In this document: in pieces, positions 480 through 18,411 of the stretch
How the letters are laid out: each line of letters opens with the position of its first letter
How positions within the stretch are numbered: position 1 is the stretch's first letter
Source: Schmidtea nova
Lineage: Eukaryota
Length of the DNA stretch: 42,086 nucleotides
Reading direction: 5' to 3'
Assembly: GCA_044892505.1 (NCBI GenBank)
Contig: CM097883.1
Location: 119,164,001 to 119,206,086 of the forward strand
Translations under genes and position numbers: made by a program
The notes under the pieces: generated by a model
The model's database searches: none
What the model saw: only the letters and a program-made list of their open reading frames with translations
What the model was told of the DNA's origin: nothing

Positions 480-1268
480 TATTTCATAGTATTTTGTGTT
501 CAATAAAATGTATTATTTATTCACTAATGTTTTTGTTCATTAAAACTTTGTTATTGCTTTTCATTATAATATAAATTTGTCAGTTTAGAACGCTGGAAAT
601 TATATTTACAGCATTGTGTTTGAAAAACAAGAGGATAAAGCAAATTCAAACATTTATTTATAACTTTCAAGGAAAACAAACTAGGAAAAAAGAGTTAAGC
701 GAGTGTTGGGCTGGTAGAAGTGAAATTAAAATTTTGTTTTAATGCATCCAAAAATAGATTATCGCACACCCCCCCACCCTAGAAAATAGCACCACTGTCA
801 CTATTTCGCGATACTTCAACTACCGTCTTAACCCGAAAATAACACCATGGTGTTATGTTTGAATATAAGATCACTCTGGTGTTTTTTTCAAGTATAACAC
901 CATGGTGTTTTAAAATACTCTAATGTAATAACTTTTTTTTACATATTTTTAATATTAAAATAATAAAAAGTATTTCTTAAAATTTTATTATTATATATTC
1001 TTTTTTTTTATAAAATATCTTTTATAATTTTCAATTTTAAGTACTTTTAAAATTTTTCTTAATATAAGTTTTTAAGCTGTGTCCATTAAAGAAAATTGGA
1101 ACATTATAATAAAAAATGCAAATACTTAAACTTCATTTGAATATCTAGTATCAAATCCAATTCAAACTGTGGTAATGGTAGAAATTGATCAGTATTTTGG
1201 GATACATATGCTTGGTTAATTAGCATTATATTAATGTTTAAATATTAAATAAAAAACCATGGTGTTAT

Positions 1269-1889
1269 AGTAGAGTAGGGGGAGCGCCCAAGAACAGGAA
1301 CAGGCCCCCCTCCCCCCTAAAATTTTTTTTACCCCCCCAAAAAAAATTTTTTTTGTTTAAATGAAGTGAATTTTTTAAATTTTTTATTTTGTTTAAATTA
1401 AGTGAATTTTTTATTTTGTTTAAATGAAGTCAATTTTTTAATTTTAATTTTTTGTTTAAATGAAGTCAATTTAATTTATTATTTNNNNNNNNNNNNNNNN
1501 NNNNNNNNNNNNNNNNNNNNNNNNNNNNNNNNNNNNNNNNNNNNNNNNNNNNNNNNNNNNNNNNNNNNNNNNNNNNNNNNNNNNNNNNNNNNNNNNNNNN
1601 NNNNNNNNNNNNNNNNNNTAATTTATATTTAATTTTTTATTTTTAATAATTTATTTTTATTAATTTATTTTTAATAATTTATATTTATTTATTTTAATTT
1701 ATATTTAATTTTAATTTATATTTATTTTTAATAATTTATTTTTATTAATTTATTTTTAATAATTTATATTTATTTTTAATAATTTATATTTATTTATTTA
1801 TTTTAATTAATAATTTATATTTATTTTTAATTTATTTTAATTAATATTTATTTTTAATTTATTTTTAATAATTTATTTAAATTTAAATT
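1269..1889 (+). repeat. Left Polinton TIR (inner boundary uncertain because of gaps)
   Basis: Terminal AGTAG motif, C-tracts, about five copies of TTTTGTTTAAATGAAGTGAATTTT, then AT-rich tandem repeats. Mirrored at the right end. Confidence 0.85.
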
Positions 1890-2267
1890 NNNNNNNNNNN
1901 NNNNNNNNNNNNNNNNNNNNNNNNNNNNNNNNNNNNNNNNNNNNNNNNNNNNNNNNNNNNNNNNNNNNNNNNNNNNNNNNNNNNNNNNNNNNNNNNNNNN
2001 NNNNNNNNNNNNNNNNNNNNNNNNNNNNNNNNNNNNNNNNNNNNNNNNNNNNNNNNNNNNNNNNNNNNNNNNNNNNNNNNNNNNNNNNNNNNNNNNNNNN
2101 NNNNNNNNNNNNNNNNNNNNNNNNNNNNNNNNNNNNNNNNNNNNNNNNNNNNNNNNNNNNNNNNNNNNNNNNNNNNNNNNNNTTTAAAATAATAATACTA
2201 ATATTTCATCACAGTATAAATAATACAATAAAGTAGATAAAAACAAAAAGAAATAAAATACAAATAT

Positions 2268-5200
2268 TTATTGAAATAAATCATCTTCATCTTCGTCATC
2301 TTCTTGAATATCTTCATCTTCGGTAATTGAATCCCCCATAACTGTAAAACTTTCCCTACAATGTCCATAAGCAATACTTTTATTTTTCTCAACCCAAAGT
2401 CTCTTATCATCGAGGTTAGTAAGTGCAATTTTTGAAAACTTATTAGTAAAAATTTGATGATTTTTACTCACAAATCGAGACTGCTCTACTGAAACTATAG
2501 TATTATTTCTATAACAATCAAGATAAGACCGATGCTTCAGTTTAGTATCTTTCAAACAGACGCCTTTAGCCTTTAAACATTCCTTATCACCTAAAAGACT
2601 ATAACATTTAGGTCTAAGAAAAACCCATTCCTTATATTTATGACCCTTATTTTCGTCTTTAAACTTTCCTATAACAGAATCAAGTTTTTTCGAATATAAA
2701 GAATGACTAGGGTCGTAATTCGATGTATCCAAAAGACAATCTCTAACCATCGCAGGTAACAGAACATCTAACCTACAATTCTTAATCTCCAAGAAAAAAG
2801 AGTCAGTATCGCCTGCAACTATATTAATCTCACAGTTGAATTCATTGCGATATTTTTGCAATTCTTCATACTGGAGTTGATACATTCTAAGTTTAGATAA
2901 ATCCAGTACACTTTGGCCAATGTAGCTGGGTCTATCTAAACACACAGAGTCCTTATTAAGCAAGACAGAAATTAGATCATCATCAATCCTATAAGTTTTT
3001 CTAAAGGTAGGTTTTGATGTATATGTAATCAGTTTTGATGCTGAATTACAAAGTCGTAAATTGAGTCTTTTCTTAAGATTTTCGACAGTTTTTCCATAAA
3101 GACTATTATTTAAAAGTTTGTAATAGTTTTTATCTAAAACAAACGATGAAGCTGCCCTAAGTTCAGTGTTCGTATCAATATATTTTTTAAAGATGGGTTT
3201 CTGTTTGTACTGAACAGCCCGATGAACTCGTGTTATTTTAACACCCAAAGAAACAAAAAGCTTGAGAAGCCTCCAATGAACAACATAGTTGAACTTTGGA
3301 TAATGTGTTAACATTAACTTCTCAACTTTAGAATTGGGAGCACACATTTTCTCTGCTGCAACCGGAAAGTCATTTAATTTATCGTGAATTTCAACTGGGA
3401 TTACCAAGTCAACTTCAAATGTTACACCGATTGTTAAAAGTTCCAAGTCAGCATCCATCAAATTAATTAATTTATTTAATTTTTTCTCATCATTAATCCA
3501 TTTAAATTTACCACAAGGTAATTTTTGGCTTAAAGCCCAACCGTACAAATTATTAATGTCGATGTAAAGTAGTTCAGTCGTTTCGGAGGATACTACGTGA
3601 TGCTTGTTGACAAATGTCAAACCACCACGGATCCCCCCTTCGAAAAAATTATACATCTCCATATCCTGGAGCAATTCAATAGGTTCTTCCAAGGTAAGAA
3701 GTGCAGAAGCCCACGACATACCTGGAATACCCAAGAAATTCAACGGTTCTAACCTATTATGAGAAATTGACTTGGCTCTAAACTGTTGAAAGAAATCAGC
3801 AAGAAGAAAGACGTCAAGTTTTAAGTATATCATCATATAGTCACAAAGAGTTTGACAATTAGTTTCCCTCCAAATAACTAATGCCTTGTCGTATTCAGCC
3901 TGCTTAACACCCTCCCAGATTGGTGGTAATTCATATGTTTCATTCAAGACTTCTAACGATGTTGCAAAATCATAAGGAAAAATACCCTTACAATCAACAA
4001 TAGTCCCGGTGAATTCAGATCTAGTCAAAGGTAATGAAGTCAATGTTTTAACCGCATCATTTAAACTGGAGTTAATAAACTGACAAGAGTCAATGAATTT
4101 AATTGTTAAATCGCCGACTCTTGCAGACAAAGTAAGGAATTTTTCACTCGTAGTTGGAATACATGAGATTTTCCAAGTTGAAAAGTTTGTCAATCCATAT
4201 TTAAGAATATGGTGCATGTCATACCCTTTTAAATTATGAAACACAACCGGTAGTTCCTTACGAATCTGTCTAGTAAGATTGCATTTTAAGCAAGCAGCAC
4301 CCAAATATTCACCAGTGTAGTGATCATGGTCTCTGACTGGTTGTACTAAAGTTTTCCTACAGAGATAACAATTTGTAGATGATGCAAAAGATATTTTATT
4401 TTCAAAAGTCATAATAAGTGGTTTTTTGAAATTGTTTTTATAAAAAGGAAAAACAATTTCTTCACCTATATTATTAATTTCAGCAAGAAAATTAGTAACG
4501 CAATCAAGACCCAAGAAACTCTTGTAAATCTTTTCTCCAGTAAAGTTATTTACAAGTAAAAGACCGGCAGATATTGGGACATGTCTTTGAAAGTACTTAT
4601 CATCAGCAGGTAAGATTGCCTCAAAATCGGCGTAAACAACAAAAGGTGGAGTAATTGTTTTGCCCCAATTACTAAATGTCAAATAAGGATTTTTAGGCAA
4701 AGTATATAGAGTTGTGCCTAATTGATTTTTAGAACACAACTCTTGATGACGAACAAAAGAATCTTGATATCTAAACCCATTCAAGCAACGATGGTACCAT
4801 ATACTTTGAATACGAGTACCAGATATCGATTTATTGTCAAGATTTAAAAGCCTATCAAGATTGGTTACTGCTATATAATGAAAAGAGTCACCATTTTGTA
4901 AAAGAATCAAGTTAATAGGAATTCCGTCTACTACTTTCGACCTATGAATTATGTCAATACACGGATGTTTGAAAACTTCAGGCTTAGTGTCTAGAATTCC
5001 AGATTCATCATATGAAAGTACGTTAATCGCATATCCCGGGTTTTTAGCTTCAAACTTTGGGATATTGCAAAGACGCATAGGCAAATCAGAAGGACTAAAG
5101 TTAACATCAGAAAGATTGTAATTACTGATCCTATGTTTATTTTTACGGCCAGATATCTCATCATATTTAATAATTACCAAAACAGAATAGATAAAGCACA

Positions 5201-6245
5201 AGTCATCAGAATTCTGAACATTTACAACACAATGTTTTGATTTTAAAGATTCAGGAGTGTCAATACCACCGTAACCTATCAACCTACTTATCTCAGAAAA
5301 TTTGGTTAATATGAAATGAATTTCATTAATTTTATTAATTATCCAGTTACTACCTCTATTATTAATTAATGTAATTTTTTCATTAAGAATATTAATGCCA
5401 TCGTCTATAAAGGTATCTGTGACAGGTTTTGCAGAGTTAGAAATAACTATAGTTTGAAAAGCACCATCTTTTTCAAACTCAACTTCGATGCAAAATTGAA
5501 TTTTAACCGTTCCCATGGTTTCAATTACATTATTTAATTTATTAATTAAATTATCAGGTACAAACATGCTTTTTAAATTCAAGTTAGTGACAATCATTTT
5601 AACTATAGCATGTGATTTATTTAAATCAAATTTAACAACAGGTAAAATGGAGCCACCAACCTGTACTTCAGGAACTAAAGAGTATTTATAGTCAGAAATT
5701 TTATCAAAAGAACCACCAATTTGAATATTATCGATAGGATCAAAAGAGTCTACAACCACAAAATCAGAAAGATTATTTAAATCAAGAATGTTATCAGGAA
5801 TGATATCATTATCAAGAATGGTATCAAGAATGTTATCAACAGGAATGGTATCATTATCATCATCATCATCAGAAATTACAACTATATCTGAAGGAACAAC
5901 CGAATGAACAACTGAAGAAATATCATCAGAAAGATCTGACTTGTTAATTTTGACTGGGATTGGACTATTTACATTACATTTTCTTTTAATCGGTAATTTA
6001 AAAATTGATTTTTTAGATGTTTTAAATTGATCTAAATGATCGCAATGAGTATTGTAAAATTCAATATACGAAGAGGACGAAGTAGATTTGCAAAAAGGAC
6101 AAATGTAGTAAGTTTTACAGTTATGAGGGTATGCATAATATTTTTCCATTATTTCATGGCATTTTACATCATGAATTGTGGAGTTGCAATATTTTTGATA
6201 TAAATTGCCTATAATATTTAAAAATAATATAAAAATAATGATCAA
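2268..6245 (-). CDS. POLB: Protein-primed family B DNA polymerase with an N-terminal extension and an endonuclease VII-like Zn module
   Basis: Exonuclease motifs YADFEA, FHNLKGYD and YLKLDV. Polymerase motifs DINNLYGWA, KLLNNSLYGKT and AGDTDS. CYLC..DHDHYTG..AACLKCN insert. The ORF-track start is TTG; the first ATG is at 6149 and the true start may be spliced. Confidence 0.97.
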   Translation of the reverse strand: MIIIFILFLNIIGNLYQKYCNSTIHDVKCHEIMEKYYAYPHNCKTYYICPFCKSTSSSSYIEFYNTHCDHLDQFKTSKKSIFKLPIKRKCNVNSPIPVKINKSDLSDDISSVVHSVVPSDIVVISDDDDDNDTIPVDNILDTILDNDIIPDNILDLNNLSDFVVVDSFDPIDNIQIGGSFDKISDYKYSLVPEVQVGGSILPVVKFDLNKSHAIVKMIVTNLNLKSMFVPDNLINKLNNVIETMGTVKIQFCIEVEFEKDGAFQTIVISNSAKPVTDTFIDDGINILNEKITLINNRGSNWIINKINEIHFILTKFSEISRLIGYGGIDTPESLKSKHCVVNVQNSDDLCFIYSVLVIIKYDEISGRKNKHRISNYNLSDVNFSPSDLPMRLCNIPKFEAKNPGYAINVLSYDESGILDTKPEVFKHPCIDIIHRSKVVDGIPINLILLQNGDSFHYIAVTNLDRLLNLDNKSISGTRIQSIWYHRCLNGFRYQDSFVRHQELCSKNQLGTTLYTLPKNPYLTFSNWGKTITPPFVVYADFEAILPADDKYFQRHVPISAGLLLVNNFTGEKIYKSFLGLDCVTNFLAEINNIGEEIVFPFYKNNFKKPLIMTFENKISFASSTNCYLCRKTLVQPVRDHDHYTGEYLGAACLKCNLTRQIRKELPVVFHNLKGYDMHHILKYGLTNFSTWKISCIPTTSEKFLTLSARVGDLTIKFIDSCQFINSSLNDAVKTLTSLPLTRSEFTGTIVDCKGIFPYDFATSLEVLNETYELPPIWEGVKQAEYDKALVIWRETNCQTLCDYMMIYLKLDVFLLADFFQQFRAKSISHNRLEPLNFLGIPGMSWASALLTLEEPIELLQDMEMYNFFEGGIRGGLTFVNKHHVVSSETTELLYIDINNLYGWALSQKLPCGKFKWINDEKKLNKLINLMDADLELLTIGVTFEVDLVIPVEIHDKLNDFPVAAEKMCAPNSKVEKLMLTHYPKFNYVVHWRLLKLFVSLGVKITRVHRAVQYKQKPIFKKYIDTNTELRAASSFVLDKNYYKLLNNSLYGKTVENLKKRLNLRLCNSASKLITYTSKPTFRKTYRIDDDLISVLLNKDSVCLDRPSYIGQSVLDLSKLRMYQLQYEELQKYRNEFNCEINIVAGDTDSFFLEIKNCRLDVLLPAMVRDCLLDTSNYDPSHSLYSKKLDSVIGKFKDENKGHKYKEWVFLRPKCYSLLGDKECLKAKGVCLKDTKLKHRSYLDCYRNNTIVSVEQSRFVSKNHQIFTNKFSKIALTNLDDKRLWVEKNKSIAYGHCRESFTVMGDSITEDEDIQEDDEDEDDLFQ

Positions 6246-6310
6246 AATTATGATAAAAATTATGATAAAAATATTATGATAAAAATATTATGATAAAAAT
6301 TATGATAAAA
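6245..6310. repeat. Tandem 13-15 bp AAAAT(AT)TATGATA repeats in the divergent promoter region
   Basis: About five copies visible between pPolB and the 6444 gene. Confidence 0.8.
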
Positions 6311-6443
6311 TATCAATGATGTATATCAAGTGTGTATACACACATTCAAAATATCGTAATATATATTTATTGATTATGATTGGTCAAAATAATTTAAAAA
6401 TTACTATATAAACGACTTATAAAATTAAAATAATCATTAAAAA

Positions 6444-6972
6444 ATGTATCAACTGAAAAGTAAGATTAATTAATTTTAAATGATTATTTTTTAATTTATT
6501 TTTTCTAGAATCGAAAAGAATGACAAAACAAGAAATAATGAAGATTATTCTTGAGGAAAATCCTATTTCTTCATCTAATTTGGCATTGAATTCACCAGTT
6601 CAATTCATGCAATACTCGATGGAGTATTTGAAATATCCAATCAAATATTCATTTAAAGTAATTAATTAAAAATTATAAAAATCTAATTAATATTATTTAC
6701 AGGAACCTGTTACATTGAAACAATGTCAATTCAATATTCAGGTTGGAAAAATCGGGGAAACTGATAGAAAGAATCTATCTGAAATTTTAATGCTAATAAA
6801 TAAAGATATTCAATTCAACGAGGAATTCACATATATGAACTGTAAAAAAGAAACAGATTTAGGCAAATTAGATGATAATTCAATGTATCAAATTCAAATT
6901 ATCTTACAAGGATTTAAACAATCTGAAAACGTGATAAAGCCTATATGGAAAATTACTGATTTTCATGAATAA
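6444..6972 (+). CDS. Three-exon 144-aa protein, join(6444-6459,6509-6657,6703-6972); possibly an OB-fold ssDNA-binding protein
   Basis: GTAAG..TTCTAG (49 nt) and GTAAT..TTACAG (45 nt) introns join into one open frame, MYQLKKSKRMTKQEIMKII...IKPIWKITDFHE. TATATAAA at 6405 lies upstream. The function is a guess from the C-terminal beta-strand pattern. Confidence 0.7.
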
Positions 6973-7029
6973 ACTCTTGTTTAATTTATTTGTTCTTTAT
7001 TTATTTTTAATAATTGATTTTTATAATAA

Positions 7030-7230
7030 ATATATTTTAAAATATATAAATTTATAAAATATATTTATTATAAAAATTAATTAAATTCATAAAATGTAAA
7101 AATATATTTATTATAAAAATTAATTAAAATCATATAATGTAAAAAATATATTTATTATAAAAATTAATTAAATTCATAAAATGTAAAAATATATTTATTA
7201 TAAAAATTAATTAAAATCATATTATATAAA
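7030..7230. repeat. AT-rich tandem repeat (~45-bp unit)
   Basis: Repeated AAATATATTTATTATAAAAATTAATTAAA..CATAAAATGT units. Confidence 0.75.
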
Positions 7231-7234
7231 AAAT

Positions 7235-7456
7235 CTAATTGATAATAATAGTTTCATCAATATATAAATACTTACATTTAAGTTTCGTTGTCATAATATT
7301 GCTTGGTATAATTTTCTTTGTCATTGTCATAATATTGCTTGGTATAATTTTCTTTGTCATTGTCATAATATTGCTTGGTATAATTTTCTTTGTCATAATA
7401 TTGCTTGGTATAATTTCCTTTGTCATAATATTATTTGATATAAATTTCATTGGCAT
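7235..7456 (-). CDS. Small repetitive basic peptide (73 aa, IIPSNIMT(MT)KK repeats); a 5'-UTR intron at 7516-7469 is likely
   Basis: 27/33-bp in-frame tandem repeats. A GTAAGT donor and TTTTCAG acceptor lie just upstream of the ATG. Confidence 0.45.
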   Translation of the reverse strand: MPMKFISNNIMTKEIIPSNIMTKKIIPSNIMTMTKKIIPSNIMTMTKKIIPSNIMTTKLKCKYLYIDETIIIN

Positions 7457-7764
7457 TATTTCAAAAATCTGAAAAGAAAAATTAATAAATATTCATAAAA
7501 AATTAAACTTACTTACTTAAGTTTGCGTGTTGTTAAAAATGTCGTTTATTTAAACGAAATTATTTTTAAATTAATGTAATTTAAAATTAATTAAATATTT
7601 ACAATATGTAATTTAAAATTAATTAAATATTTACAATATGTAATTTAAAATTAATTAAATATTTTACAATATTATTTTCAAATATAATTTAACAAATTCA
7701 AACATAAAAATTCCATAAATAGAAAAAGTCGTTTTATAATAAAAGTCGTTTTATAATAAAAATT

Positions 7765-8144
7765 TTATTTCATATATTTTAGCCAAGCTAAACAATGTTG
7801 CCCACAGGTTTTTGTCATTGGATTTTGATACCGAATTCTGTTATATTCTATTGGTTTTAACATTGACGATAATTTTTTCAATAATATCGGTGGATAATAA
7901 AATCCCATTGGATCAAACACGTATATTTTATCGGGTTTATTATAAATTGCAAGCCAATGTTCACCTTTGAGATTTGATGATTGAGTATTGACAATCAATG
8001 CTTTATTCACATCTATATACGGTATTTTATCTAGAGGAAAAACTCCTAGAAATTCCGATCCAATCAATTTTCTAGCAATCTGATCTACCTGAATTGAACT
8101 AAAATCAATAAAATTTAATTAATTAAAAATAAATCTTACTTCAT
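7765..8144 (-). CDS. PRO: Adenain-like (C5-type) cysteine maturation protease, join(8144-8140,8098-7765), 112 aa
   Basis: Catalytic motifs GEHWLA, FDPMG and QNPMTKTCGQHC. Removing a 41-nt GT-AG intron restores the typical N-terminus MNSIQVDQIARKLIGSEFLGVFPLD. Confidence 0.93.
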
Positions 8145-8221
8145 TTACTTTTTTAATTAATTAAAATTAGTTTATATTAAACCAATAATTTTCAATTAAA
8201 TCAACAATGTTTGAGCAGAGC

Positions 8222-9448
8222 TCAAACCAGTATTGTTCGATTAGCTGTAATTTGTAATTCCTTTTCAAAAACTCCATATACAATTACAGAAACTGATTCA
8301 GTCAATGGTGTACCAAATTTAATATCAAGTCTTAGATTACCTTGTTGTGGTAATTGACTTTGATTTAGGTCAAAATCTGGAGCCAAAACGAAGGTGAAAA
8401 AAGGATATTTACTTTTCCAATCTGCTAAAGTAATACCGCAATTCATACTCTTATTCAGGTAACCAAGGTTACGGACAATAGATTGCATATAACTAGTACT
8501 ACAAATATCATTTTCAAAATCTTGAGAATATTTTTCACGATAATCACTTCCTTTCGATAAAGTTAATGATTTGACATTAAAATGATCGTAAATAGAATAA
8601 GTTTCAGTAAAAGAACCACTATGTCTTTTATTTCCTTGAAACGCTACAAGAATAAAGTTTGGTAATCGTCTATCTCCAAAGATTTGTTCCTTATAAAATG
8701 AAGAAGAACCCATTGGCAATGAAAATTCTACAACTTCCTTATTTCTTATTGGGTAAATTGCATTTCTTGTACTAAGTCCAATTTGATGCCCAGCATAAAC
8801 TGATGGTTCTACTCGAACTCTTCTAACCATTAATTTTGCCTCTAATAATTCAATTATAGGTTCAATTTTTGTACATGTTAAACTATTGGATGGATTTGAT
8901 CTCGTCAATTTAATTTGAACACTAACACCAGGTAATAAATACTTGGGTTGTTCCATGAAATCGAAATGTAATGGAGAACAAATTGAAAATGGTTTTGATT
9001 TTGCAATCCATGCTTTTCTAGTAAGATCATGGTCATTGTATCCCATTGGAGTTAAAGATGTGTGTTTTGTATCACTATTGTAGTTGAGAATAGTTTCAAT
9101 CATGGCTTTGTGTGTAAATGTATCATTTCCTCCTTCAACTTTAGTAGAATTGAAAATTAATTCGGCTTCTTTAAAAAGAGTTTGGAAAAAGAAATTGTTG
9201 GGAGTAACATCAGCATCCAATCCTAAATTTTCACCCGATTTGTTTACAACTTTGACCTGAAGAGATAGTAAAGTATCGTTCAAATCTAAATATTCAGTTT
9301 GAGATCCATTGATGTAAAATTGAATAGATGATGTCCCAGCATCTGTAATTGAATTTGTTGGGTAAATATCTTCAAATGCACCATGTTCAATTACTGCTTG
9401 TGGAGATGGTCTATCAAAAAGACATAATTCAGATTTTGCACTAATCAT
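8222..9448 (-). CDS. PY: Double jelly-roll major capsid protein (Polinton PY)
   Basis: 408 aa with the characteristic start KSELCLFDRPSPQAVIE, YLDLNDTLL, MEQPKYLLPGV and C-terminal GNLRLDIKF. Confidence 0.92.
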   Translation of the reverse strand: MISAKSELCLFDRPSPQAVIEHGAFEDIYPTNSITDAGTSSIQFYINGSQTEYLDLNDTLLSLQVKVVNKSGENLGLDADVTPNNFFFQTLFKEAELIFNSTKVEGGNDTFTHKAMIETILNYNSDTKHTSLTPMGYNDHDLTRKAWIAKSKPFSICSPLHFDFMEQPKYLLPGVSVQIKLTRSNPSNSLTCTKIEPIIELLEAKLMVRRVRVEPSVYAGHQIGLSTRNAIYPIRNKEVVEFSLPMGSSSFYKEQIFGDRRLPNFILVAFQGNKRHSGSFTETYSIYDHFNVKSLTLSKGSDYREKYSQDFENDICSTSYMQSIVRNLGYLNKSMNCGITLADWKSKYPFFTFVLAPDFDLNQSQLPQQGNLRLDIKFGTPLTESVSVIVYGVFEKELQITANRTILV

Positions 9449-9852
9449 TTTTCAAATATTGTTCCATATCCTTTCATTCTTTTGTTTATATGTTTCTTCA
9501 TATTTCTTTTTCGTTTAAGAATTCCGCCATTTTGTTTATTTTCAGTTTTATTTTCGTTAAACACATCAGTCACTTTACTAATTACTTGTGGCAAATGATG
9601 AATCACATCGGGCAATGAGTCTTTAATTTCAGAAATGGCATTGGATTTTAGTGCAGGTAAAATCTTTGAATTATTATTTAACACATCATTGGCAGTTTTC
9701 ATACCAAAATTTCCAATACGTCTAAGAATTGGTAATGCAAATCTACCTATCGTTTTCAACCAACCAGTTCCATATTGTTTACCTACAAAATACGGTAATT
9801 CTCCACCTGATTGGCTGTTGCTATAGAAACTGATAATATCTGGATTATTCAT
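9445..9852 (-). CDS. Conserved small Polinton virion-type protein (135 aa) with QxGG/QxGxG motifs and an amphipathic segment
   Basis: QSGGELPYFVGKQYGTGWLKTIGRFALPIL resembles the small ORF usually found beside the MCP in animal Polintons. Basic C-terminus. Its stop overlaps the MCP start (ATGA). Confidence 0.75.
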   Translation of the reverse strand: MNNPDIISFYSNSQSGGELPYFVGKQYGTGWLKTIGRFALPILRRIGNFGMKTANDVLNNNSKILPALKSNAISEIKDSLPDVIHHLPQVISKVTDVFNENKTENKQNGGILKRKRNMKKHINKRMKGYGTIFEK

Positions 9853-9856
9853 TTAT

Positions 9857-10867
9857 TTAACGGAAATGTAATGTCAAGTAAGTTTTGTCTTCTTTTGCAA
9901 ATTTAACTATTTTTCCACTGTCATCACGAATATTGATTTCAATATTGTTTATATATGTGGAACTGACCGGTAAATACATTGGATTTTTCTCAACAATTTG
10001 AACCAAATCACCCTTTTTATGTTTTTCAACCCAAACACATTTCAATAGGGGAACTGACATGTCACCAACAAGAATTGGTTGAATAATATTCGTATAGATG
10101 AACATTTGCTGATGAAGTTTTAAAACTTGTGGATAATATACGCCATCAATAATTTTGTCAAAGAATTCTTGTTCAACTAATCCTAACGAATTTGCTAAAT
10201 TCCTACTAAATTTTACACTAGTTATATCATCTTCAAGAATTAATTTAATTAATTTTCCTTCTTTAATATCAATCACTTTAAATGGATGTGGATAAAAAGT
10301 TTCAATTTGATCAGATAATTCAGTAAGATTATTTATTATTAAATCGTCTTTGAAATTATCTGTGTATTCAACAGGAAAAGTATAAGTTATAGTAAACCGT
10401 ATAGTATCATCAAGTTTTTTATTTTCATTTGCTGGAATTTTAATTTTGTTTAATTCATCATTAAATGTCACAGTTTTTTCTTGAAACCCTAATTTTTTAG
10501 CTTCATCAACACTATCAAATATTATTTGAAATGGAAAATATTTACAATTTACATTTAAAATATTGCCATCAATATACATTAAATAATAATTAGAATCGTG
10601 ACTTATATCATATTCTTTCTTTTGTTGGTTAAAATTGAAATATTCATAACTAGAATGTAATTCATTTCTAATAAATTTTATACTTGAACTATTATAAAAT
10701 GGAAATTCATTGTACACAAAAGTAAAATCCATAAGAGCAACTTCCCAACTACCATCCAAATAAATTGGGTTTTGATATTCAACATTGAATTTTCCAGCTT
10801 TATTATTGGGATGTGTCAATGGACAAGAATTGCTTGGTAAATTAACATAAAAATCTTTTTTAATCAT
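9857..10867 (-). CDS. PX: Minor capsid protein/penton (PX), copy 2, with large central insert
   Basis: FYVNLPSNS..NKAGKF..WEVAL at the N-terminus; IYTNII.P..VGD..VPLL..YLPV..IEINIRDDSG..LTLHFR at the C-terminus. Confidence 0.9.
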   Translation of the reverse strand: MIKKDFYVNLPSNSCPLTHPNNKAGKFNVEYQNPIYLDGSWEVALMDFTFVYNEFPFYNSSSIKFIRNELHSSYEYFNFNQQKKEYDISHDSNYYLMYIDGNILNVNCKYFPFQIIFDSVDEAKKLGFQEKTVTFNDELNKIKIPANENKKLDDTIRFTITYTFPVEYTDNFKDDLIINNLTELSDQIETFYPHPFKVIDIKEGKLIKLILEDDITSVKFSRNLANSLGLVEQEFFDKIIDGVYYPQVLKLHQQMFIYTNIIQPILVGDMSVPLLKCVWVEKHKKGDLVQIVEKNPMYLPVSSTYINNIEINIRDDSGKIVKFAKEDKTYLTLHFR

Positions 10868-11897
10868 TTATTTTACGAAAATGTAGAGTCAAATGAGTCT
10901 TTGTATCTTTTGAAAATTTAATTAATTTTCCACTGTCATCACGAATATTGATTTCAATGTTGTTTATAGTTGATGTTGAAATCGGCAAATACATTGGATT
11001 CTTTATTTCAATTTGTACAACTTCGCCTTGGTCATATTTCTTGATCCAAATTGATTTTAGGAGGGGAACTCGTACATCTCCAACAGTTACTGGTTCAATA
11101 ATGTTGCTGTAAATGAACATTTGCTGATGAAGTTGTAAAATTTTGGGGATTTTTACACCAATTATTTCTGTATCAGTATATGTTTGTTTCTGTAGACCCA
11201 GAGATTTGGTTAAATTTGAATCAAAAGTAATTTTTGAAATATTATCCTGAAGAATAATTTTAACCAATTCATTATTGACAAGTTTCAATTCTTTAAATGG
11301 AGATGGATTAATTTTCATTAAATATCCTTGTAATTCCGGTAATGACGTTATGAATAATTCATCTTGAAAATAATAATCATTAACAGTTTTAATGTCATAA
11401 TTTATTAAAATTCCAAATTGTTCAAGACTATTATCATTCGTGAATTTTGGTAATTTTAAACGACAATGGTCATTTTCACTTATAATTGTGGTATTTGTCA
11501 ATATAAAACTTTTTGCATGTTCAAGATCTGGAAATGTAATTTTAAATGGAACATGTGGACAAACAATCACTAAATAATTATATTTTTCAATAAATACATC
11601 AGTGTCTGAACTAGGTTGAGAAACTATAACTTGAATTGTTTTATTTTGATTATTAATTCTCAAATAACTAATTTCTTGAATTTCTCTTTTAGTTTCAATT
11701 TGAATAAAAGAATTACTATAATACGGGAACAAATTATACACAAAAGTAAAATCAATCAAAGCAACTTCCCAATCGTCATTACTATTTAAATAAATCGGAT
11801 TTTGAAATTCTACATTAAAATTACTAGCTTCATTATTAGGATAAATAAGAGGACATGCATTGCTAGGCAAAATCATATAAAACTGGTTTTCTTTCAT
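10860..11897 (-). CDS. PX: Minor capsid protein/penton (PX), copy 1, with large central insert
   Basis: Same terminal motifs (FYMILPSNA, WEVAL, VGDVRVPLL, IEINIRDDSG, LTLHFR) with a different central domain. Confidence 0.9.
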   Translation of the reverse strand: MKENQFYMILPSNACPLIYPNNEASNFNVEFQNPIYLNSNDDWEVALIDFTFVYNLFPYYSNSFIQIETKREIQEISYLRINNQNKTIQVIVSQPSSDTDVFIEKYNYLVIVCPHVPFKITFPDLEHAKSFILTNTTIISENDHCRLKLPKFTNDNSLEQFGILINYDIKTVNDYYFQDELFITSLPELQGYLMKINPSPFKELKLVNNELVKIILQDNISKITFDSNLTKSLGLQKQTYTDTEIIGVKIPKILQLHQQMFIYSNIIEPVTVGDVRVPLLKSIWIKKYDQGEVVQIEIKNPMYLPISTSTINNIEINIRDDSGKLIKFSKDTKTHLTLHFRKIND

Positions 11898-11902
11898 AAT
11901 AT

Positions 11903-12988
11903 TTATTTAATCAATTGTTTTTCAGATATCCAACTTGGAGTTTCATAGCCATGCCATTTAACGTAATATTGTTTATATTTCCCATCAGTTTTGGTTTTTA
12001 AAATCTTTTGAATTCTAAAAACTGTGGGAGCTGGAATAACTTGAAGTTCTTGTTCGTAGAATTTACCCTCGATTACATTGTTTTCATGATCGGAAATAGT
12101 ATACATGACAGGATTTTGATTAGTATCAACATTTGAGATTTGATATACTTCATCACTCCAATTACTATCAAAATTTTTGATGAATGGAGAAGCACTGATT
12201 TTACTCATTCTCACATAATCACCTACTTTATATTTCGGTTTTTTATTAATTGATTTTAATCTATCTTTTATCCATCCATCAAAATTATTATTTGAATATA
12301 CATCGATAGGTTTCATTTTATTTAATCCCGAATGCGGTGAACGATTGTAACTGGAAATAATTTTCGGTAAAACATTTATCCATGTTTTGTTACCTTGATA
12401 CACAAAAAACTTTTTCAAACGATCTCTTAAAGTACGATTTAATCTTTCAACATGAGCAGCTTTGAATTGATAAAATACAGAATAATGATTGATTCCTTTA
12501 ATCACTTCTTTTACTTTGCTGTTATAAAACTCTTTTCCTAAATTAAAATTAATTAATTTTTAAAAATTTAATTTATTACCCAAATCAGTTTGTAAATTAC
12601 GTGGCTTCCCATCTTTAAATAAAGATTCAATAGCCTCAGCCATTTCATTAGCAGATTTAGTTTTTGTTGGAATAGCTCGTGCATAACGGCTAAAAACATC
12701 AATACAAGTCAAGATATATTTGTAACCCTTGTTAATTTTAGAATAAGGAATCATTTCCATCAAATCCATTTGCCATAAATCGTTACCCCCAAAAGTTTTA
12801 TATTTCCGTGTAGGAAATCTTTTCAACATTGGTTTATTTAAACTATATGCCAATTGATCAGATAACCATTTCTGAGTTTCATTCTTTGAACTTTTTATTC
12901 TTTTTGCCAATTTTTTGACTGAACCAAAACCATCGGGATCTTTTGGGTTTGTCCATATCGTTTTTATATTCTTCATGATTTTCTTCAT
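11903..12988 (-). CDS. INT: Retroviral-type (rve) DDE integrase with C-terminal chromodomain, join(12988-12580,12537-11903), 347 aa
   Basis: Catalytic WQMDL, TDLG and VERLNRTL. A 42-nt GTAAT..TTTAG intron restores TDLGKEFYN. SH3-like KYKVGDYVR and chromodomain YYVKWHGY..SWI. Confidence 0.95.
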
Positions 12989-13050
12989 TAATACAACAAT
13001 TTGTTAAAATATTTAAATCTATATTATGTTTATTCGGTTCAGAAATTTTA

Positions 13051-13380
13051 TTACCCATTTCTTAAAGATGAGATTGCGCTTATTGCTGATAATACTATTG
13101 GAATTAATGTACCGAGAAACCCACCCTTTTGTTTATATATTATTTTTCGCATAAGATTTCTATTTTTGGTATTCACTAATGATAAAAGTGAATTTTTATG
13201 TTTTTGTAGTTCAATTTTCTTTGATCTACTAATATTTACATTACCATGAACAATATTAAAAACGATTTCAAGTAAATCATCAATAACAAAGGGTGGGAAA
13301 GCTTGTAAAATTATCATTCGCTTATTTGTTGGAGCTTTAACCAAAGCATTAAAATACGGTAAACTACGTTCAAATTTCAT
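13051..13380 (-). CDS. Conserved small Polinton protein (PW-like) ending QKGGFL plus a hydrophobic tail
   Basis: NIVHGNV and KQKGGFLGTLIPIVLS match a recurrent small ORF of animal Polintons; the exact family name is uncertain. Confidence 0.75.
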   Translation of the reverse strand: MKFERSLPYFNALVKAPTNKRMIILQAFPPFVIDDLLEIVFNIVHGNVNISRSKKIELQKHKNSLLSLVNTKNRNLMRKIIYKQKGGFLGTLIPIVLSAISAISSLRNG

Positions 13381-13410
13381 GATTAAAATTTTTGTGTATA
13401 TTTATTTCGT

Positions 13411-13596
13411 TTATAATTTTATCCACTTCTTTACTTGTTTCTTTCTTTTACCAATCTTTTTGACAACTTTTTTAACTAATTTTGATTTTCGATCAACTTT
13501 TTTAAGAAGTTTTTGATCAACTTTTTTAAGTAGTTTTTGATCAGCTTTTTGAATAGCTTCTTTATTTAACTTGACAATTACTTTTTTAAATGACAT
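13411..13596 (-). CDS. Very basic Lys-rich 61-aa protein; candidate genome-condensing core protein
   Basis: ATG-initiated, QKLLKKVD repeats, packed between the ATPase and PW-like genes. Confidence 0.6.
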   Translation of the reverse strand: MSFKKVIVKLNKEAIQKADQKLLKKVDQKLLKKVDRKSKLVKKVVKKIGKRKKQVKKWIKL

Positions 13597-13617
13597 TATT
13601 ATTTCTTTTATTTATTT

Positions 13618-14241
13618 TCAATTTTGTTTATAAACCGTGACTCCATTTTCGTTAAATATATCCGTTCGGATACGTAAATCATCAGGACATTGTTGAGTAA
13701 AATCAAAGAATAAATATCCATGAGGAACTTTAGTAGCATCTTGAAATGAATTAATTAAAAATTTCCTATCATTAGGGTAAGCTTGTCTTGCTAGAAAATC
13801 AATAATTGTAGCATCTCTTGGGTTTTTGAATATAACCAAGTATTGAACATTTAAATTACGAGTTCTGTGACTACGACCTTGATGAAATAAATTTTGAGTA
13901 ATGAAAATTACAGTAACTCCTAAATGTCTACTAATTTTTGTGAATAAATTATTAAAATCTTTTTCTTTATTTGCTTCTTGGTACAAATCATCGATAATTA
14001 TAACATCGCCTTGTCGTAATCTAGATGACCAGTTTTTATCAAACCCTTTTATAATTGTCATTTTTAATTTGCAGAATTGATCTTGAGTCAGTCCATGTTC
14101 TTCATCAGCTCCCCGATGCCAGTAAATTTTATTGAATTTAGATTTAAACATTTTTGATTGCAACAATTTACATACAAATAATGTTTTTCCACTACCACTT
14201 GGGCCCACTATTTGATAAACTGCATCATTTCTTAATTCCAT
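13618..14241 (-). CDS. ATP: A32/FtsK-HerA-like genome packaging ATPase
   Basis: Walker A GPSGSGKT, Walker B IIIDD, then ISRHLGVTVIFITQNLF and PHGYLFFD. Confidence 0.95.
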   Translation of the reverse strand: MELRNDAVYQIVGPSGSGKTLFVCKLLQSKMFKSKFNKIYWHRGADEEHGLTQDQFCKLKMTIIKGFDKNWSSRLRQGDVIIIDDLYQEANKEKDFNNLFTKISRHLGVTVIFITQNLFHQGRSHRTRNLNVQYLVIFKNPRDATIIDFLARQAYPNDRKFLINSFQDATKVPHGYLFFDFTQQCPDDLRIRTDIFNENGVTVYKQN

Positions 14242-14301
14242 TTTTAATTAATTAATTATTAATTAATTTAATATTGTTTATATTTATTCAATTTTATAAA
14301 A

Positions 14302-14784
14302 ATGATAAGTAATATTAATTATATGGGCAAGTGTTTAGTTCCAAACATGATATTTCCTGTTGGGAAACCCCAGCAAGTTATAGATAGGAGTGGGAAGTAC
14401 CCTATTTTATTTTTCAGATCGGGAAAATGTCGTGTAATGGGTTGTAAGCAACCGTTAAAACCAGATGATTTGAAATATAAAATTTCCGATTTAAAAATTC
14501 AATCGATCACTATAACATTGGATATGGGTAAATCCATAAATTTATACGAATTGCAAAATAAAACAGAGTGCTGGTACGAACCCGAAATATTTCCAGCTTT
14601 AAGATTAATAAATTATAACCCGATTTGTATTAATATTTTTTCAAGTGGAAAAGTTGTAATATTAGGAATTAAAACATTGGATTATTTTAATCAAGTAAAT
14701 GAAATTAAAAATTATATTAATTCATTAATTAATAATGAATTAATTGATGAAAAATATCTCGATTTATTATTTAATTTTGTTTAA
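14302..14784 (+). CDS. TATA-binding-protein (TBP)-like protein inside the Polinton
   Basis: C-terminal repeat KIQSITITLD..INLYEL..YEPEIFPAL..INIFSSGKVVILGIKT matches the TBP pattern IQN..YEPELFPGL..LIFxSGKVVLTGAK. A shortened N-terminal repeat reads ISNI..LFFRSGKCRVMGCK. Confidence 0.85.
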   Translation: MISNINYMGKCLVPNMIFPVGKPQQVIDRSGKYPILFFRSGKCRVMGCKQPLKPDDLKYKISDLKIQSITITLDMGKSINLYELQNKTECWYEPEIFPALRLINYNPICINIFSSGKVVILGIKTLDYFNQVNEIKNYINSLINNELIDEKYLDLLFNFV

Positions 14785-14819
14785 ATACATTGTTATTTTA
14801 CAAATCCATATTTTTGAAA

Positions 14820-15205
14820 ATGTCTAAAAGTAAGTATTATTTTTAATTATCTATATTATTAATATTTTTAATTTAGCTTATTTATTTGAAGTGGTCCTGA
14901 AGAAAATTCAAGAATTATATCCAAAAATAAAAGATTCTTTGGATTATTGTGCGCCAGAGTTATTGGTTCATAAGATATATAAGCTTACTGGGATCAATAT
15001 CGAACAATTGCTCGAGATTCACTACGATATGGTGCTAGGAGCTGGAGTCAAGTGCGTTGAAAATTGCATAGTTTGCAATGATTCACTAAGAGTATCCTGT
15101 GTAAATGGATGTGCATGCTGTCATGATTTTAAAAGAGATCATTCGGTGCATATCTTAATGTCAGAAATGCGTAAAGCATATTATAACGACATTTATAATT
15201 TATAA
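14820..15205 (+). CDS. Two-exon Cys/His-rich 112-aa protein, join(14820-14829,14877-15205); probable Zn binder
   Basis: A 47-nt GTAAGT..TTTAG intron gives MSKTYLFEVVLKKIQE...; Cys cluster KCVENCIVC..SCVNGCACCH..H..H. Confidence 0.7.
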
Positions 15206-15808
15206 TAAAGTTTTGTGATTTAGTTGTTCTTTATTTTTATTTCAAAGTTTGTTCTTATTAATTTACTATTTTATTGTATTATTTACACTGTGATGAAATA
15301 TTAGTGTTATTATTTTAGAAATTTTTCTAAGNNNNNNNNNNNNNNNNNNNNNNNNNNNNNNNNNNNNNNNNNNNNNNNNNNNNNNNNNNNNNNNNNNNNN
15401 NNNNNNNNNNNNNNNNNNNNNNNNNNNNNNNNNNNNNNNNNNNNNNNNNNNNNNNNNNNNNNNNNNNNNNNNNNNNNNNNNNNNNNNNNNNNNNNNNNNN
15501 NNNNNNNNNNNNNNNNNNNNNNNNNNNNNNNNNNNNNNNNNNNNNNNNNNNNNNNNNNNNNNNNNNNNNNNNNNNNNNNNNNNNNNNNNNNNNNNNNNNN
15601 NNNNNNNNNNNNNNNNNNNNNNNNNNNNNNNNNNNNNNNNNNNNNNNNNNNNNNNNNNNNNNNNNNNNNNNNNNNNNNNNNNNNNNNNNNNNNNNNNNNN
15701 NNNNNNNNNNNNNNNNNNNNNNNNNNNNNNNNNNNNNNNNNNNNNNNNNNNNNNNNNNNNNNNNNNNNNNNNNNNNNNNNNNNNNNNNNNNNNNNNNNNN
15801 NNNNNNNN

Positions 15809-16380
15809 CCAAAAATAAATTTANNNNNNNNNNNNNNNNNNNNNNNNNNNNNNNNNNNNNNNNNNNNNNNNNNNNNNNNNNNNNNNNNNNNNNNNNNNNN
15901 NNNNNNNNNNNNNNNNNNNNNNNNNNNNNNNNNNNNNNNNNNNNNNNNNNNNNNNNNNNNNNNNNNNNNNNNNNNNNNNNNNNNNAAAATAAATAAATAT
16001 AAATTAAAATTAAATATAAATTNNNNNNNNNNNNNNNNNNNNNNNNNNNNNNNNNNNNNNNNNNNNNNNNNNNNNNNNNNNNNNNNNNNNNNNNNNNNNN
16101 NNNNNNNNNNNNNNNNNNNNNNNNNNNNNNNNNNNNNNNNNNNNNNNNNNNNNNNNNAAATAATAAATTAAATTGACTTCATTTAAACAAAAAATTAAAA
16201 TTAAAAAATTCACTTCATTTAAACAAAATTAAAAATTAAAAATTCACTTAATTTAAACAAAATAAAAAATTTAAAAAATTCACTTCATTTAAACAAAATT
16301 TTTTTTTTTTGGGGGGGGTAAAAAAAAATTTTTAGGGGGGGGGGTCTGTTGCTGTTCTTGGGCGCTCCCCCTACTCTACT
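15809..16380 (-). repeat. Right Polinton TIR (inner boundary uncertain because of gaps)
   Basis: Reverse complement of 1269 onward, with a few substitutions and homopolymer-length differences. Confidence 0.85.
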
Positions 16381-18411
16381 TGTTATATTTGAATTTTTCT
16401 TCAATGTTTTAAAAATTCAAAATTTTTTAAAAACTCAAATACAACACCATGGTGTTATTTTCGGATTAAGACGGTAGTTATTGCGTGTTTTAAAAAATCA
16501 AGTTTACCTATAGATTAAAAAGTTTTATGGATTTTCAAGTAAACATATTTTTAAAAAAGTGCTGCACTTTATTTAAGTCTTATTATTGATTTTTAAGTGC
16601 AAAATAGTTATTTTTGGGCACAAATCATCGTTTTTCATAGGGATACACAGATCTTGATAATAAGTGCAAATACTTATAAAATACAGTGCTCCAAAACATA
16701 AAAATCGATATTATTACAAAAGTGTTAAATCAACTTGCGCAGATCGGATTTACACACGAAAAATACACAAGAATTGAATGGGGAAGATCACTGCTTATAT
16801 ATAGAATACGAAATGCATGATCAAAGAATAAAATCGGTATTACAATAAAGAGAGTATTTCAATAATGATTTATTAAAAATTTTAGAAGAAATCTCCATTG
16901 AAATGTCGGTAAAATAACAGAGATTAAAATGAAAATAGAATTAAAATTAAATTTGATTCTTTTAATCAATCTATTAAAGTGGATGCACACATGATTTAAT
17001 CGAGTTAAAAATAAATATTAAAAAAACAAATAAAGTAAATTGTACAATTAAATTTACAGAAAATAAATAAATAATCATTTTTCAAAATACATAAATTAAA
17101 TATTAAAATAATTATATAAATTAAATTAATAATATTCTTATTTTACAAACATAATGTGTAGGCTTCATTTAGAATTAGTATAAATAGGCGCTGAGAAATC
17201 ATAATTCTAGCTCACTTACTTACTTGCCGCGGACAAACAATTCTACTTGTATTTTTGTTTAATTCTACAAAACAGCACTAGTAATTGTATTTTGTTATTC
17301 AAGTGTAAGGCGTAATTAGACGATTTTACTTAATAAACATTTGAAATATGATTTTAATTTTTATTCATGGTTTGTTCAATTTGATTTTCCTTTAACTTAG
17401 TCAAATAATGGTTGTGAAACCGGTTTCCCAAAGCAGCTTTAGTCCTACCATTCACCAGGCGAATTCAAGGTTTAAGCCTTGGTATATAATAATTAAAAAG
17501 GTAAATTTGAAGTCATTCAAGAATAGGCTTAAGCAGCCTGGTGGATATAAGCATGATGATTATTTTGATGTTTTAGGATAAATAAGTGGGATCTGAAATA
17601 GGATAGATATAAAATTAGGAATTTATCACTCCAAATGACCGTAAACTGGATATGTGCGTAAGTCTTTCTATCGGCAGCAGGAACCCGAAAGAGAATACAA
17701 CGAGTAGTTTGGCAACAAAGCTCACCTGCTCACTAGATTCTCACCAAGTACAGTACCATCATAGTTTGCCAAGGAGTAACTATAGGTATACGAGTAAATC
17801 AGTTAACATTTATGATGGGGTGAGTTGTAGTTATCCCTAGACTAATAATAATTTTGTAGCAACCAATAACGCGAATATAAAGAATACCTGCAAACACACA
17901 TACCATCATCATAAATAACCTTATCTTGAAACTGCAATTTTGACACATTATTACGTAGTATGCTTGTTTAATTAAGTATTTATTCCTTAAAAAATATATA
18001 TTTTGAAAGAATAAAACTTATCAAGAAAATACAATTAATTTATTTGTTTAAATAAACTAATAATACACAAAGGTATGCCGTAACTAACTCGTTTAAATTC
18101 AGTACATGCGACAGAACTTTAACCAAAATTATTTTAAACAAAACAGATAAGTTAAGTTGTACAAACTTTGGAATTATAACTATAATAGATTAATCTAAAA
18201 AATAAACAATTTTATTTATACAATAAAGGTCAGTGGTTACAGAAAAAGCTGGGTATTATTAACCGATATCATACACTAAGACTACCAAATTTCTGAAATC
18301 TGACGCTGATTTACTATATTTATAAAAATAGATCACAATAAAAATTATAACAAAATGTTATCACAAAATCAACAAATTAAATTTGACATTTTATCAATTA
18401 ACGTGATTCTA

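Follow-up and report, generated by a model that had tools for sequence, protein, structure and literature searches.

Gene content of a Polinton in Schmidtea nova

The window, by which we mean the whole stretch of 42,086 nucleotides (nt) analyzed here (Schmidtea nova assembly GCA_044892505.1, contig CM097883.1, positions 119,164,001 to 119,206,086), contains a full-length Polinton/Maverick element of 15,112 bp at positions 1269-16380. The element has the AG...CT-ended terminal inverted repeats and the 6-bp target-site duplication by which Polintons are recognized; its long inverted repeats have AGTAG termini, and the duplication, TGTTAT, is present on both sides. We refer to this element and its closest copies as family A. 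Two further families were identified in the same genome, family B, with about 70% DNA identity, and family C. The genes for the integrase, the protease, the polymerase, and 2 accessory proteins of the element are interrupted by GT-AG segments, which, from the sequence comparisons described here, we consider with a probability of about 0.9 to be ordinary introns removed by the host spliceosome.

Pfam searches supported the identification of a protein-primed family B DNA polymerase (pPolB; DNA_pol_B_2, PF03175, E 1e-18), an rve integrase (PF00665 on exon 1, along with an alignment to full-length homologs), an adenain-like protease (PF00770), and an A32-like packaging ATPase (PF04665), the latter 2 with scores over the curated cut-offs, as well as a protein-X-like open reading frame (ORF) and a TBP-like gene. 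The capsid-like and penton-like ORFs, in the place where Polintons encode a double-jelly-roll major capsid protein and a penton, had no match in Pfam, among PDB sequences, or among phage proteins, and were conserved at this expected place in all relatives; we presume their identities from gene position and general knowledge of such elements, and the labels are putative. The composition of the element is 70% to 90% AT. The features are listed below with window positions and strand.

2268-6208 (-): main exon of pPolB, 3,941 nt, opening with a Cys/His motif; Pfam DNA_pol_B_2
6209-7275 (-): predicted phase-1 intron of pPolB, 1,067 nt, with a GTAAGT donor and a TATAG acceptor; holds the antisense 144-aa (amino acid) gene
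7276-7468 (-): predicted first coding exon of pPolB, with ATG at 7456 and 60 codons of tandem repeats
7469-7516 (-): intron in the 5' untranslated region (UTR) of the pPolB transcript, 48 nt, separated from the ATG by 12 nt; 7512 is a possible alternative donor
6444-6972 (+): 144-aa gene, function unassigned, in three exons (6444-6459, 6509-6657, 6703-6972)
6460-6508 (+): intron 1 of the 144-aa gene, 49 nt, in codon 6
6658-6702 (+): intron 2 of the 144-aa gene, 45 nt
7765-8144 (-): adenain-type cysteine protease, exons 8144-8140 and 8098-7765
8099-8139 (-): protease intron, 41 nt, codon 2, phase 2
8222-11897 (-): uninterrupted ORFs for a putative major capsid protein (9448-8222), a 135-aa protein, and two penton-like paralogs
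11903-12988 (-): retroviral-like integrase (rve, weak chromodomain), exons 12988-12580 and 12537-11903
12538-12579 (-): integrase intron, 42 nt, phase 1, within the codon for the Gly that follows the second catalytic Asp
13051-14241 (-): uninterrupted protein-X-like ORF, small basic ORF, and A32-like packaging ATPase
14302-14784 (+): TBP-like gene, uninterrupted
14820-15205 (+): Cys-rich 112-aa gene in two exons, with a 47-nt phase-1 intron at 14830-14876

Short GT-AG segments in the genes of the element

The first-pass annotation of the window had reported six short GT...AG segments, and all of them were present with the lengths given, namely 42 nt in the integrase gene, 41 nt in the protease gene, 49 and 45 nt in the 144-aa gene, 47 nt in the Cys-rich gene, and 48 nt in the 5' UTR. 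Their GC content was 5% to 15%, as compared to mostly 23% to 35% in the coding flanks. Like U2-type introns, they have GT...AG ends, a pyrimidine-rich 3' end, and a size typical of host introns. It had also been proposed that their removal restores the reading frames, and with regard to length this was borne out, in that the exons of the integrase, protease, 144-aa, and Cys-rich genes sum to ATG-to-TAA frames of 347, 112, 144, and 112 aa. A strict scan of positions 2200-15320 for intron-like segments recovered 6 segments, whereas 3 x 200 block shuffles gave a mean of only 0.08 to 0.15 and a maximum of 2; the scan criteria were set after the segments had been seen, which makes this a generous control.

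The host has an AT-rich animal genome with short introns, and the similarity in size to host introns noted previously was found again. Within the window, an ATOX1-like gene with an HMA domain contains introns of 42 and 51 nt, and three introns of 54, 62, and 45 nt were measured in a DHODH gene that matches Pfam DHO_dh and has an exon for which the best match to a solved structure was entry 6uy4, probably a flatworm enzyme. An assembly error as the source of the segments was excluded: the integrase segment was present between exact flanks at 1,561 places in the genome, which makes family A very large, and the number of places without it was 0. There were likewise 0 matches to processed, intron-less family A copies. 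An origin from introners was rejected since the six short introns have only splice motifs and AT richness in common, and no repeat family among them was listed in the repeat analysis of the window.

Variation among family A copies

In a comparison of 50 loci, the integrase segment varied in length from 41 to 45 nt, and the GT was kept in all 50 and the AG in 48. Of 19 longer copies, 12 had a recognizable protease segment (39-70 nt), 12 and 15 the first and second introns of the 144-aa gene (48-49 and 45-46 nt), 17 the Cys-rich intron (47-53 nt), and 6 the UTR intron (48-63 nt); copies without a given segment were either cut off or missed by the strict anchors. One copy had a mutated donor. The length changes disregard the reading frame while the ends persist, which is the pattern expected of introns.

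It was also noted that the in-frame stop codon at 12560, inside the integrase segment, was absent from 145 matches, as compared to the 1,561 (about 9%, an approximate value, as shorter flanks were used in the search that gave 145 matches). In these 145 copies, translation could continue across the integrase segment without leaving the frame.

Intron positions in families B and C and in outside relatives

The integrase gene was continuous in all 60 family B loci examined (from two overlapping source searches). Family C instead contained a 44-nt intron at the same base of the integrase gene, both in locus L149 and in 10 of 12 further stretches, the other two of which did not cover the site. All three families had the protease intron in codon 2, phase 2 (in family B, at 29 of 30 loci), and its inner sequences were unrelated. 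A phase-1 intron at the matching acceptor was also found in the Cys-rich genes of families B and C, the proteins of which have 21% to 34% sequence identity. Homologs of the 144-aa gene were identified in families B and C as well as in metagenomic loci, and those in families B and C had no interruption where the second intron is located. In an atlas search, the 144-aa protein homolog from family B resembled unnamed viral proteins, with a score of 0.90, which we regard as a weak lead, and the Cys-rich protein had no atlas match above 0.76. When a distant integrase was used as query against this genome, only family B was returned.

To include relatives from outside the genome, we scanned metagenomes with the 3' half of the integrase, which gave 25 loci, many of them redundant; no relative was found in scans of viral contigs. 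The integrase junction was continuous in all 22 metagenomic loci that covered it, whereas the codon-2 intron was present in all 7 loci that contained the protease gene. These protease introns were 37-47 nt long and represented 5 distinct sequences, in proteins with 47% to 57% identity. Furthermore, of 178 integrases in the databases, 158 had no insertion at the motif and 20 lacked the motif, in a comparison for which gene calling favors intronless genes.

Position and phase were conserved and the inner sequence was free to vary for the introns of the protease, the Cys-rich gene, the integrase (families A and C), and pPolB, described below. This bears on the alternative that the segments are not spliced at all, being AT-rich insertions or intergenic DNA, and that the genes start further downstream or are dead in these copies. 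In its favor, no spliced read was encountered at the introns of the 144-aa gene among the joints listed (see below), the element is rich in AT throughout, and the read-through copies of the integrase would suit such a scheme. Yet families A and C have reached high copy numbers although every copy examined contains the integrase segment. In none of the families does the protease exon have an ATG close to its conserved start, and between families and samples it is the GT and AG ends that are conserved and not the inner sequence. We therefore consider this alternative to be extremely improbable.

Judging from their distribution, the introns differ in age. That of the protease is old and predates the families of this host, whereas those of the integrase and the 144-aa gene are specific to the lineage. 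The earlier proposal of a long co-adaptation to the spliceosome of this host has to be revised for the protease intron, which is common to relatives from other samples and so does not reflect adaptation to this host. The integrase intron is derived and was likely gained later, on the branch that led to families A and C. In a tree of 40 integrase 3' halves, A, B, and C fell, without a resolved branching order, within one clade that also included intronless relatives. Families A and C share a two-residue deletion and have a higher pairwise identity, which favors one gain; possible alternatives are a gain that was followed by loss in B and two independent gains. The integrase intron may have arisen by tandem duplication around AG/GT, in that similar letters occur on both sides of it in family C, but these letters are also equal to the splice consensus.

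Family B loci were often palindromic two-arm derivatives, and many of these elements are young, for example L101-L104 and L135-L140 (G000:C3:79.49-79.51 Mb). In the palindromic elements, two 99.5% identical inverted arms, extending from the ATPase gene to the capsid-like gene, flank a single protease gene, and the polymerase is missing. In the B-related copies L141-L146, two arms with the TBP and Cys-rich genes flank the protease and the polymerase, which suggests that the two types are complementary defective forms. One family B element (L142:4042-4488, -) carries a gene of the Bcl-2 family (PF00452, E 1.5e-07). A 166-aa ORF in a metagenomic relative (L234:722-225, -) is, we assume, similar to ubiquitin-conjugating enzymes.

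An upstream exon of the polymerase gene

The first-pass annotation had counted pPolB, from its first ATG onward, among the uninterrupted genes, together with the ATPase, putative capsid, and penton genes. The ORFs of the latter genes were indeed continuous, but pPolB very probably contains a 1,067-nt intron at 7275-6209, upstream of the first in-frame ATG. In the three families and in a fourth polymerase fragment, a conserved motif starts right after an AT-rich tract that ends in AG, and this motif begins upstream of the ATG. The 15 residues before the ATG at 6143 are conserved as protein and have counterparts in the aligned coding sequence of a homolog from a metagenome. A repeat ORF that starts at 7456 reaches the GTAAGT donor at 7275 in phase 1, which matches the acceptor at 6209.

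The donor and the acceptor were kept in all 30 loci examined (window included), with an intron of 997-1,465 nt, and the upstream exon, of 109-295 nt, was open and in phase in 29 of them. The pattern of the upstream exon was also found in 12 of 13 members of a more divergent set. The same donor context was located 1,066-1,074 nt from the acceptor in family B (for the 3 of 5 loci that gave a distance) and 334 nt from it in family C (L149). A search with the pPolB N-terminus using HMMER without a profile yielded 25 short homologs, 19 of which were retrieved and 11 aligned, and no homolog was found among proteins of similar length. Without splicing, the junction codon is Gly in the three families, whereas it is Cys in 12 of 12 other aligned homologs. 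This Cys is the first in the Cys/His motif, and the base on the donor side gives a Cys codon.

An unlikely alternative is that the short introns are real and that the repeat ORF (7456-7235) is a separate small gene, with the polymerase starting at the ATG at 6143 or in another, unseen exon. The repeat ORF does have its own stop at 7235, the outside homologs start the motif directly after Met with no repeat leader, and repeat units with a length divisible by three preserve the frame in both models. A separate gene is disfavored in that the sequence upstream of 6143 is conserved at the protein level, the donor is located at the same Lys-then-T position in the three families, where it supplies the base of the conserved Cys codon, and the families have no conserved residues past the donor.

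If the upstream exon is joined to the polymerase across 7275-6209, it follows that the 144-aa gene lies antisense inside the polymerase intron. The segment at 7516-7469 described as a 5' UTR intron is present in family B at the same position; its place has to be revised in that it is the leader intron of the pPolB transcript. In adenoviruses, the start codon of the E2B messages is provided by a distant upstream exon. The upstream exon here differs in that it is a variable repeat of 36-99 codons and that the junction splits a conserved Cys codon.

The polymerase leader of family C contained four more introns of 43-47 nt further upstream. The leader in L149 (8059-8538, +) consists of a 3-nt ATG exon and three 60-nt exons, which have apparently multiplied by tandem duplication of an exon plus an intron. 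Short introns were also observed at the 5' end of the polymerase gene in the metagenomic locus L246. A weak match to endonuclease VII (PF02945, E 1.6e-04, below the cut-off) was located within pPolB at 4300-4520 (-), corresponding to residues 584-624 counted from the ATG at 6143.

Splicing and function of the introns

According to the preferred interpretation, the segments would be removed by the host spliceosome from nuclear transcripts made by RNA polymerase II (Pol II), and we infer nuclear Pol II transcription, as the first-pass annotation did, from the presence of spliceosomal introns. Splicing is predicted to be constitutive and obligatory: it would supply the start codon of the protease and Cys-rich genes, restore the active-site loop of the integrase, and join the upstream repeat exon to the polymerase across the 1-kb intron that holds the antisense gene. 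The site at which families A and C, or their ancestor, gained the integrase intron would have been of the AG/GT type. The element copies itself from DNA to DNA, with no reverse-transcription step that could erase the introns, which may be why they persist, and selection would keep only the splice sites and not the inner sequence.

Several observations weigh against this interpretation or parts of it. The first intron of the 144-aa gene is without homology support and is followed closely by an ATG at 6520. No GT-AG joint was seen for the introns of this gene among the 15 entries listed of 287 from four contig sets covering 2200-7015; these sets look like DNA, their kind is uncertain, and they provide no evidence either way on splicing. 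One subfamily has a weaker GTTAG donor. Families A and C are not resolved as a sister pair in the integrase tree, so that a single gain rests on their shared two-residue deletion and higher pairwise identity. Finally, the pPolB intron is long compared to the nearby host introns of mostly 42-62 nt and must still be recognized by the host spliceosome.

It had been suggested that the integrase intron could act as an integration switch, in that retention would give a truncated, dead integrase; if regulated, such a switch would limit integration by tissue or stage. Retention would bring in a stop codon in most family A copies and a frameshift in family C, the intron sits in the catalytic loop, and introns mark the latency genes of an endogenous giant virus (10.64898/2026.10.09.758095). 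However, a stop or a frameshift is expected in any AT-rich intron, and the stop is missing from the 145 matches mentioned above. No inner motif is conserved, the length varies from 41 to 45 nt in family A and is 44 nt in family C, and family B and all outside relatives have spread without this intron. A switch is therefore very unlikely; production of the integrase appears to require splicing, and regulated retention is not supported by the sequences.

Selection for start-proximal introns is compatible with ordinary splicing and is possible, although doubtful. Introns at such positions could make the viral messages resemble host messages and aid in their export, or in escape from the silencing of intronless foreign transcripts. 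Four of the seven introns are located no more than 16 nt from the start codon, and the protease intron has stayed in codon 2 across the divergent proteins of the outside relatives. Moreover, HUSH is reported to silence intronless mobile elements in human cells (PMC8770142), and planarian Polintons, for which knock-down data exist, are targets of PIWI-interacting RNAs (PMC8532177). On the other hand, introns are missing from the genes for the ATPase and the capsid-like, penton-like, and TBP-like proteins, and an intron between the ATG and the rest of the gene can only be lost by exact deletion, so that its persistence needs no benefit.

More tentatively, a whole clade of animal Polintons might use spliced, adenovirus-like expression, with an ancient codon-2 intron in the protease gene that is kept in different hosts, a polymerase that begins in a variable upstream exon joined to the rest over a nested antisense gene, intron-free capsid and ATPase genes, and splicing as a selected layer of control. 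If so, this layer would separate the enzymes for replication, integration, and maturation from the structural genes, and the three families would record the gain of an intron into a viral catalytic site.

Comparison with other elements and viruses

The element has inverted repeats, a 6-bp target-site duplication, pPolB, rve integrase, A32-like ATPase, and adenain-like protease genes, and a size of about 15 kb in common with the Polintons/Mavericks of vertebrates (Barreat and Katzourakis 2021, PMC8097293) and nematodes (Widen et al., 10.1101/2022.07.12.499685), but differs from them by carrying introns in the core genes for the integrase, the protease, and pPolB. Intact vertebrate Mavericks are reported to be without introns (PMC8097293) and nematode elements to have intronless core genes, with introns only in cargo genes (10.1101/2022.07.12.499685). 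Other papers describe endogenous viruses of protists without introns (PMC10120064) and group I introns in Polinton-like viruses of cryptophytes (PMC12220804). Intronless core genes, which are a common description of Polintons and not part of their definition, are not a property of the element studied here.

The Maverick-polinton-like proviruses of dinoflagellates are also integrated elements with intron-type insertions; those insertions were copied from introner transposons that are active, and most of them postdate the integration (Gozashti and Corbett-Detig, PMC11957031). The introns examined here are instead not copies of each other, are fixed in families, and in one case are common to distant relatives. 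Adenoviruses have a related protein-primed polymerase and protease and spliced E2B messages for the polymerase and the preterminal protein from nuclear Pol II transcription (PMC7851563). Punuivirus, an endogenous giant virus of Chlamydomonas, is likewise integrated and has host-like spliceosomal introns in part of its genes, described as absent from the virulence and virion program (10.64898/2026.10.09.758095). It differs in being a giant virus with RNA-validated introns and a demonstrated link to latency.

We found no literature on spliced Polinton core genes, including in the accessible text of PMC11296320, PMC9004415, 10.1101/2023.08.22.554363, PMC8502044, PMC5718144, PMC11244446, and 10.1101/2024.03.25.586562; Repbase entries, the founding papers from 2006-2007, and supplements may describe such exons. 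Surveys of Polintons treat intact elements as those with intronless ORFs and use prokaryotic gene callers, assuming the viruses to be free of introns (PMC8097293, PMC10120064). Elements like this one would be scored as broken in such surveys, or be given short polymerases and proteases. If splicing is obligate, the element would also have to be transcribed in the nucleus of the host, and a cycle like that of virophages, in the cytoplasmic factory of a giant virus, would then be less likely for this lineage. Furthermore, three families in one genome that differ in single introns provide a case in which the gain of an intron by a viral gene is dated and testable.

Additional observations

The TBP-like gene (14302-14784, +) was conserved in families B and C and in the metagenomic relatives, and its product may direct the element's own Pol II promoters. 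A 59-aa ORF at 13058-12879 (-), with a Met-Gly start and a Cys-Cys pair, overlaps the start of the integrase gene in another frame, and similar ORFs were present in family B and in three metagenomic loci. The Polinton itself is located inside a small element with 45-bp inverted repeats (window 818-862 and 16435-16479). Elsewhere in the window, decayed polymerase-like and capsid-like fragments of other Polintons and a series of broken transposase-like ORFs were observed at 21300-22100, 24313-24585, 34214-34555, and 36469-38381.

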